Positions 738 to 922 of a DNA stretch of 64,000 nt are shown here, one piece after another. The translations under genes and the position numbers were made by a program. How positions within the stretch are numbered: position 1 is the first letter of the stretch; each line of letters opens with the position of its first letter. The notes beneath the pieces are model-generated. The model did no database searches, was not told the DNA's origin, and worked only from the letters and a program-made list of their open reading frames with translations. Origin of the DNA: Candidatus Magasanikiibacteriota bacterium (GTDB lineage Bacteria > Patescibacteriota > Patescibacteriia > Magasanikbacterales > GWA2-37-8); assembly GCA_016189025.1 (NCBI GenBank), contig JACPGS010000027.1, forward strand, positions 22,506 through 86,505, in the 5' to 3' direction.

Positions 738-922
738 AGACTGTAGAAGAATACTAACTATATCGTTATCCGCCTGGGCGCTGTCGCTCTTGCTCGGCCT
801 GCCTGGTCGGGCGCGGCAGACACTCTTTGGGTGCTCTCCCGACTTGAGATCGGGATGCGCGCCCAAAGACACTCGTCTGCCGCGCCCTGATTCTGACTGG
901 TTTTTCCAATTCTTCTACAGTC
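738..922 (+). mobile_element. MITE-like repeat family 1, copy A, with perfect 15-bp TIRs AGACTGTAGAAGAAT / ATTCTTCTACAGTCT
   Basis: Terminal inverted repeats read directly from the sequence. The internal core GTCGCTGTCGCT...GCGGCAGACACTCTTTGGGTGC-[hairpin]-GCGCGCCCAAAGACACTCGTCTGCCGCGCC is shared with 6 other loci in the window. Confidence 0.7.

Follow-up and report, generated by a model that had tools for sequence, protein, structure and literature searches.

Correia elements of Neisseria (CREE/NEMIS) are non-coding miniature inverted-repeat transposable elements (MITEs) of 100–160 bp, which are bounded by terminal inverted repeats (TIRs) and occur about once per 8–10 kb in a small genome. 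They have 26-bp inverted ends, a TA duplication, and promoter and IHF sites, and they are found in both orientations at intergenic and intra-operon positions, where they are co-transcribed as hairpins that RNase III can process. To our knowledge, no parent transposase has been assigned to them. The ERIC/IRU and REP/BIME sequences of Enterobacteria are short, imperfect palindromic intergenic repeats, which are also co-transcribed and affect mRNA stability or bind proteins. ERIC is about 127 bp long, and we know of no duplication associated with it. REPs are 20–40 nt long, start with a GTAG head, are moved by RAYT (Y1) transposases, and have neither inverted ends nor a duplication. Genomes of the candidate phyla radiation (CPR, Patescibacteria) are about 1 Mb in size and are usually called streamlined. 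In the literature that was searched, MITEs stood alongside Patescibacteria or the candidate phyla radiation only in passing mention, and Magasanikbacteria and transposase appeared nowhere together. Here, we describe a repeated element of about 185 bp in a 64-kb stretch of contig JACPGS010000027.1 (positions 22,506 to 86,505), referred to below as the window, which comes from a metagenome-assembled genome (MAG) of Candidatus Magasanikbacteria, a groundwater bacterium. With moderate confidence, we interpret this repeat as a new, lineage-restricted, non-autonomous DNA transposon, that is a MITE, which would be moved in trans.

The original prediction, which was made from the letters of the window alone, had proposed a structured element with terminal inverted repeats in five full and two truncated copies. 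This count was reproduced both by blastn with one of the copies (copy A) as the query and by nhmmer with a profile built from the five full copies, which agreed on five full copies and two fragments and found none else in the window. The full copies had E-values of 1e-42 to 1e-62 in blastn and 1e-53 to 1e-60 in nhmmer, had a length of 178–188 bp, and were 80–89% identical to copy A according to blastn. Copies A (738–923), B (14449–14626), C (41908–42091), D (53801–53988), and E (55912–56094) are full copies on the plus strand, as is the internal fragment G (45748–45821), and fragment F (11338–11441) lies on the minus strand. Some of the coordinates proposed earlier needed correction, and copy C proper starts at 41908 rather than 41894, the stretch at 41892–41906 being an additional tandem copy that resembles the left TIR. 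Both fragments had been described as 5′-truncated, which proved incorrect. Fragment F comprises element positions 1–103, from the left end through the 5′ stem arm, with the 3′ half gone, and is thus 3′-truncated, and fragment G comprises positions ~22–94 and has lost both inverted ends. In total, the element makes up 1108 nt, corresponding to 1.7% of the window and 22% of the ~4950 nt that are intergenic among the 64,000 nt of this compact genome stretch, and it was found in 7 of the 20 intergenic gaps of at least 60 nt. Six-frame translation indicated that the element is non-coding, with all six frames interrupted by stops and no frame conserved among the copies.

The terminal inverted repeat is the 15-bp sequence AGACTGTAGAAGAAT, and the two ends are perfect in copy A, as originally stated, one being the exact reverse complement of the other. 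With up to two mismatches, AGACTGTAGAAGAAT occurs nine times in the window compared to an expected 0.04 occurrences, and 89.7% of the cells of the end helix are paired in the alignment of the copies. The ends enclose a left arm of ~55 nt containing GTCGCTRTCGCT, an interrupted GC-rich central hairpin of ~95 nt, and a short right arm containing TTTTT. The shared long interrupted stem with an apical hairpin was confirmed by alignment and folding, the apical hairpin being absent from copy B. The folding energy of copy A was −97.7 kcal/mol on the plus strand and −91.2 kcal/mol on the minus strand, with z-scores of about −10 relative to shuffled sequence on both strands. The loss of the apical hairpin in copy B, the two fragments, and tandem TIR remnants are variants of a MITE-like kind. 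In copies B and C, an additional, degenerate TIR-like sequence adjoins the true left end on its left side, and in copy B this is the stretch ACTAGTAGAAGATG. A possible solo TIR-like remnant, AGACTGTTGAACAAT, was found on the plus strand at 46385–46399, with two mismatches and no recognisable element sequence after it.

The check for target-site duplications that had been proposed originally revealed direct repeats at four copies, in a register chosen post hoc. In the register xxx-G-AGACTG...CAGTCT-KAA-xxx, a flanking 3-bp direct repeat was perfect in all four informative copies (12 of 12 bases matching), namely TTT for copy A (734–736 and 927–929), GAT for copy B, and TTT for copies D and E, and in copy D the repeat can also be read as 6 bp (TAATTT/TAATTT). 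When left and right flanks from different copies were paired, at most two of the four pairings were perfect in any register. The flanking repeat looks like a 3-bp target duplication with an A/T preference. Lengthening the inverted ends by 3 nt (TTR) was considered and dropped, as no flanking duplication remains in that case, and the asymmetric 3-bp register was preferred.

The spacers of a conserved operon are also consistent with insertion. Copies D and E lie within an operon encoding a membrane-fusion protein, an ABC ATPase, a MacB-like permease, and a DUF5666 protein, with copy E placed between the membrane-fusion stop codon (56102) and the ATPase start codon (ATG, 55905), and copy D between the permease stop codon (53993) and the DUF5666 start codon (ATG, 53771). 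In the homologous operons of two relatives with 75% protein identity, the spacers between the membrane-fusion and ATPase genes are 10 and 116 nt long and the spacer after the permease gene is 65 nt long. The corresponding spacers in the window measure 196 nt (copy E) and 221 nt (copy D) and consist almost entirely of the element. In silico excision of copy E together with one repeat left CGT TAG GAAAGT ATG ATT GAA, which is a normal tight junction.

Searches outside the window indicated that the element is restricted to this lineage. The invariant 22–23-nt core in the 3′ stem arm had no exact match in 185,579 GTDB species genomes, JGI metagenome contigs, and IMG/VR viral contigs, and blastn found no match in plasmids, phages, and 5,426 E. 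coli genomes. When 1.43 Mb of fetched loci, mostly from CPR bacteria and groundwater, were searched using blastn and nhmmer, only short contigs of the same organism were matched. In Logan assemblies of four runs, short contigs carrying the same genes end exactly in the invariant core, and these contigs match the sequence flanking copies A, D, and E with 100% identity. Together with an eighth copy described below, these breaks indicate that the organism carries the element in several copies outside the window as well. A search of the whole window against Rfam at the gathering score returned one tRNA and nothing else, and at E ≤ 10 there were only chance-level matches of 13–16 bits. With no Rfam family and no constant gene association, the repeat is a dispersed element and not a conserved gene-associated motif, the outcome that had been named beforehand as speaking against the proposal.

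A peptide profile derived from four frames of the element had a single match among 5.8 billion proteins, MBI2443681.1 (HYV42_00350, "hypothetical protein", on a 41-kb contig). Its sequence (MSTQRVSAATNQVSFSNSDSDWADNDYRQHSSTVL...) corresponds to a translated eighth copy that exits through the left end, and the annotated protein is a spurious open reading frame (ORF). The MacB-like permease of the window is 100% identical to MBI2444482.1 from a 97-kb contig of a Candidatus Magasanikbacteria bacterium, the next relatives being 75% identical. Since the two accessions are only ~800 apart, the eighth copy is very probably located in the same MAG as the window. Past the left end, MBI2443681.1 continues with ...IIKNQPAS..., which matches the translation of the right arm of the element (AAAAACCAGCCAGCA). 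A second copy or fragment thus probably lies ~25 nt from the eighth copy, which suggests clustered or nested insertions in this neighbourhood.

The element differs between its two strands. A basal helix (CCUGGUYGG / CUGRCUGG) prolongs the central stem on the plus strand and ends directly at a U5–6 tract, so that this end resembles an intrinsic terminator with a GC-rich hairpin followed by U5–6. The basal helix contains conserved G-U pairs, which correspond to A-C mismatches on the minus strand, and the plus strand was the more stable one in all five full copies, by 1.3–10.2 kcal/mol. The stability of the hairpin ranged from −45 to −62 kcal/mol. On the minus strand, AAAAA stands before the stem and CCGACCAGG after it, and no U-tract follows.

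All seven copies in the window are antisense to the surrounding transcription unit, six being plus-strand copies among minus-strand genes and one being a minus-strand copy among plus-strand genes, and the chance of finding seven out of seven in one orientation is ~0.016. Fragment F and copy B, which are 3 kb apart, have opposite orientations that follow the direction of the genes, and over the whole range from 1 to 24 kb the GC skew is positive. Consequently, the orientation follows transcription and not replication, and an orientation set by replication was rejected. The suggestion that the element might serve as a terminator was not supported for the flanking genes, as the hairpin with the U-tract is present only on the strand antisense to them in all seven copies. 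Since the terminator-like strand faces away in every case, the element does not terminate the neighbouring genes. More likely, the uniform orientation reflects the loss of those copies that would have terminated neighbouring genes. A function as an RNA-processing or stability site within the mRNA, the other role that had been suggested, is possible.

The original interpretation was thus supported in part, namely as a dispersed, non-coding, TIR-bounded, and hairpin-forming repeat of MITE type with flanking repeats, short spacers in relatives, and an extra copy, and the terminator role was not supported in the form proposed. In the mechanism that we consider most plausible, a transposase encoded elsewhere in the genome would recognise the 15-bp inverted ends, and the element would insert into A/T-rich trinucleotides such as TTT and GAT, with 3 bp being duplicated. 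Since the genome is very compact, the tolerated sites would be limited to tiny spacers beside stop and start codons, and the copies would come to fill whole intergenic regions, intra-operon junctions included. The element could be a deletion derivative of an insertion sequence that kept both ends together with a leader and a terminator and lost the transposase gene. Sense-oriented insertions would be polar in a genome of long operons and would be lost, and antisense copies would persist. The surviving antisense copies would be read through and co-transcribed as a large hairpin without a U-tract, either in a 5′ untranslated region (UTR) or between cistrons. This MITE model accounts for the inverted ends, the flanking repeat, the strand asymmetry, the orientation, and the restriction to a single lineage. 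Because the repeat fills about one-fifth of the intergenic DNA of the window and sits inside housekeeping operons, it also points to recent transposition in such a genome.

Several observations weigh against this interpretation. No transposase was found among the main ORFs of the window, of which ~60 were scanned, and no autonomous parent element was found. The sole recombinase among the scanned ORFs is a XerC/D-like tyrosine recombinase (13370–14341, minus strand), which adjoins copy B only. The direct repeats come from four copies, three of which have the same TTT, they imply asymmetric termini, with G at the left and KAA at the right, and the register was picked after the data had been seen. 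The nearest relatives are only ~75% identical in protein, which is too distant for their short spacers to be taken as true empty sites. The hairpin is not called by a standard terminator scan, its loop and length not satisfying the criteria used. Finally, the central stem is better conserved than the inverted ends needed by a transposase, the reverse of a typical MITE.

Only 5 of the 53 columns in the central stem arms vary, compared with 53 of the 100 columns in the ends and the left and right arms (Fisher P = 6e-8). The 36-nt 3′ arm of the stem shows a single substitution across the five full copies, and the T5–6 tract is invariant in all of them. In copy E, the inverted ends are strongly decayed, with about a third of their bases lost, and the core is intact. 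The MITE model does not by itself explain this extreme conservation of the core. One of three additions would be needed, namely selection acting on each copy (e.g., for stopping antisense transcripts), source copies that are themselves under constraint, or gene conversion between the copies.

We weighed a broader alternative, in which the invariant hairpin and U-tract are either kept by selection as a one-way insulator or mRNA-structuring module in a streamlined genome where Shine–Dalgarno sequences are mostly lacking, or mobilised via the hairpin by a non-DDE mechanism. Either version would explain both the better conservation of the core and the uniform orientation, and we regard this alternative as unlikely. 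Its first version assumes a host-functional, exapted intergenic hairpin of the REP/ERIC/Correia type, whose copies are now retained for a role of the central stem in the host, whatever their origin. The near-invariance of the stem arms amid decaying ends and arms, the intact core of copy E, and the constant T5–6 tract all speak for such retention, as does the uniform orientation relative to transcription. In addition, co-transcription with the host genes would be expected for all copies, and the hairpin is very stable. Possible variants are that a large intercistronic or 5′-UTR hairpin sets mRNA stability or is an RNase III/E processing site, or that it acts as a one-way insulator that stops antisense transcription into the upstream gene.

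Against this exaptation, the central stem provided no covariation evidence because it is invariant, with helices 6 and 7 never varying. The 5′-arm variant CATAGGGCGC of copy C and fragment F is not compensated in the 3′ arm, and therefore the constraint on the core appears to act partly on the sequence and not on pairing alone. Furthermore, the 5′ arm is conserved even in fragments F and G, which are unable to form the stem. The conservation of the core may therefore reflect a recent origin from constrained source copies, or gene conversion. The seven copies also occupy unrelated gene contexts without an obvious common regulatory logic. On balance, we assign exaptation a minor share of the probability.

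The second version, movement via the central hairpin by a HUH/Y1 enzyme in the manner of IS200/IS605 or REP-RAYT systems, or by a tyrosine recombinase, with the TIRs being secondary, appears improbable. It would fit a core that is the best conserved part and seems constrained in sequence as well as in pairing, one strand that folds better than the other, and an orientation as strictly uniform as in single-strand transposons. The TIR also includes GTAG, the tetranucleotide that heads REP sequences, and the XerC/D-like gene lies 108 nt from copy B. However, the orientation follows transcription rather than replication, given the flip between F and B within 3 kb under an unchanged skew, and there is no constant target tetranucleotide in the left flank. 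A 3-bp duplication with 15-bp inverted ends is a hallmark of DDE enzymes and not of IS200/IS605 or RAYT, and no Y1/HUH (RAYT) transposase domain was found in any scanned ORF of the window. The XerC/D-like recombinase adjoins one of the seven copies and scores as an ordinary Xer protein, with 229 bits against the XerD model (cutoff 330 bits). It is probably the housekeeping Xer protein.

It is improbable that the repeat is a multi-copy small-RNA gene. Such a plus-strand unit would start from a promoter within the left end or arm, stop at the hairpin and U-tract, and give an RNA of ~130 nt antisense to the mRNAs of neighbouring genes. The terminator-like end and better folding of the plus strand would suit such a gene, and a −10-like hexamer (CATAAT, TATATT, GATAAT) occurs at the same position in copies B and C and fragment F, with a promoter-like site in copy B at 14446–14475. 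However, this site is not conserved, since no good −10 is present in A, D, E, and G and the scan accepted copy B alone, for which reason a promoter borne by the element was rejected. There was also no Rfam match even at the permissive threshold, the core is complementary to no other sequence of the window, and inverted ends and flanking duplications are foreign to small-RNA genes. An assembly or binning artefact can practically be dismissed, since, although the source is a MAG and short-read assemblies break at the element, the gene–element junctions of A, D, and E are present at 100% identity in four independent Logan run assemblies, the copies differ from each other by 11–20% and have different flanks, and the flanking frames are intact and end or start where their homologues do.

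A number of other candidates were considered and rejected. An integron attC site, a diversity-generating retroelement, and a CRISPR array were rejected on the basis of architecture and absent partner genes. The layout of a retron non-coding RNA is superficially similar, and this candidate was rejected because there are seven dispersed copies and no reverse transcriptase domain in any scanned ORF of the window. A coding micro-ORF (NTG CGC GCC CAA AGA CAC TCG TCT GCC GCG CCC TGA) can be read in the five full copies, with the start codons ATG, TTG, CTG, CTG, and GTG. It lies inside the stem, where there is very little variation, and it was judged unlikely. The idea that the element separates a Shine–Dalgarno (SD) motif from the start codon, the two being rejoined by pairing of the inverted ends, was dropped, as only 8 of the 62 window genes have an SD-like motif and the junctions of the relatives are also without one.

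Copy A lies in the presumed 5′ UTR of a clpB-like gene on the minus strand (ATG at 727). A minus-strand promoter-like site at 983–956 (10 of 12 matches) is located upstream of it, and copy A is probably within this UTR, since it falls between the promoter-like site and the start codon. Copy B is located between the stop of the ORF at 14634–15677 (minus strand) and the XerC/D-like gene. The right end of copy C abuts the TAA stop (42093–42095, minus strand) of a small glutaredoxin-like ORF, and the left end of the copy C stretch, formed by the extra left TIR, is 6 nt from the ATG of the ORF at 41310–41885 (minus strand). These coordinates bear out the statement that several copies abut stop codons, which follows from the compactness of the genome, where insertion is tolerated only in spacers of a few bases. 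All copies had been described as intergenic, which applies except for fragment F, as this fragment is fused to the 3′ end of an FMN-reductase-like ORF (10793–11353, plus strand) and supplies its last ~4 codons and TGA stop. Two small ORFs were recognised by eye, both below the 80-aa threshold of the ORF listing. One is the glutaredoxin-like ORF of 77 aa with a CPWC motif (42093–42326, minus strand) beside copy C, and the other is a zinc-ribbon-like ORF of 62 aa with CxxC...CxxC (11477–11664, plus strand).

The genes of the window are mainly housekeeping genes, including those for ATP synthase, six aminoacyl-tRNA synthetases, MreBC, PBP2, BipA, an AddA-like helicase, and pyruvate:ferredoxin oxidoreductase. 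For BipA, the highest identity to any GTDB species genome is 71%, and the top matches are all MAGs of CPR/Patescibacteria. The SD-like motifs were sought at −18 to −4 relative to the start codons, and most leaders are A/T-rich. Strong SD sites are present at a few genes, one being AAAGGAGGTGACCGAT, which precedes the ATG at 46287 (minus strand). The plus-strand GC skew is positive over most of the window, as noted at 12000–56000, although the minus strand carries nearly all genes from 12.4 to 64 kb. Either transcription of this long housekeeping block runs opposite to replication, or the skew has another cause. At the right end of the window (61188–63937, minus strand, and 62001–64000), the GC content falls to 38%, and this end encodes a Schlafen/AlbA_2-HATPase_c_4 protein and an N6-DNA-methylase/Eco57I-like protein. 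It could be a defence or foreign island.

Another palindromic element, unrelated to the first and ~124–129 nt long, was observed at 45908–46031 and 53199–53321, in both cases 13–19 nt downstream of a minus-strand gene. It has terminal inverted repeats of 23–28 nt (TAGGACTTACGCGTTTGGATGCAG ... TGCGCCAAACGCGTAAGTCCTA) and a GCGAG-rich interior. In contrast to the 185-bp element, it is far more widespread, and an exact scan found it in 30 metagenome stretches from groundwater-type samples, with several contigs carrying two copies beside housekeeping genes (gyrB, metK-like). The copies are 69–91% identical, with invariant ends and compensatory changes in 11 of the 37 interior pairs, and there was no Rfam match. 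This second element could be a MITE with a broad distribution among CPR bacteria, or a structured RNA that has not been described.

The 185-bp element is most likely a new family of a known kind, a MITE, in an unusual host, and the current understanding of MITEs is not overturned by it. Its presence explains why short-read assemblies of this organism fragment. The element could also lead to an active CPR transposase, of possible use for genetics in organisms without tools, and the uniform orientation together with the conserved core constitutes a small natural experiment on the insertions that a very compact genome tolerates.

Among possible kinds of parent, the IS30 family may be considered. 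IS30 elements make target duplications of 2–3 bp and tend to insert beside their own inverted repeats ("IR targeting"), which would fit the TIR-like remnants beside copies B and C. Their ends start with TGTAGA, which resembles CTGTAGAAG in the TIR of the present element, a likeness of a few bases only. In contrast to IS30, the ends of the present element begin with AGAC, outside the TGTAG.

Of the systems described, intrinsic terminators share the GC-rich plus-strand hairpin with an invariant U5–6 directly after it, but the present hairpin is interrupted, ~95 nt long, and uncalled by the consensus scan, and it faces away from the genes in every copy. REP/BIME and ERIC sequences are set apart by the CPR host and by the lack of any match to the element in the E. 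coli genomes, and the REP/BIME-RAYT system additionally by the 185-bp length, the inverted ends, the flanking repeat, and the lack of a Y1 domain in the scanned ORFs. By analogy, the behaviour of the element is most like that of the Correia elements, to which it is similar in size and density, and with which it shares insertion into operons, expected co-transcription as a hairpin, and lack of a known parent. It is unrelated to them in sequence and has 15-bp ends and an apparent 3-bp duplication (TTT/GAT) instead of 26-bp ends and TA. Unlike Correia elements, it also has a uniform orientation and a separate central GC-rich stem, which is its conserved part.

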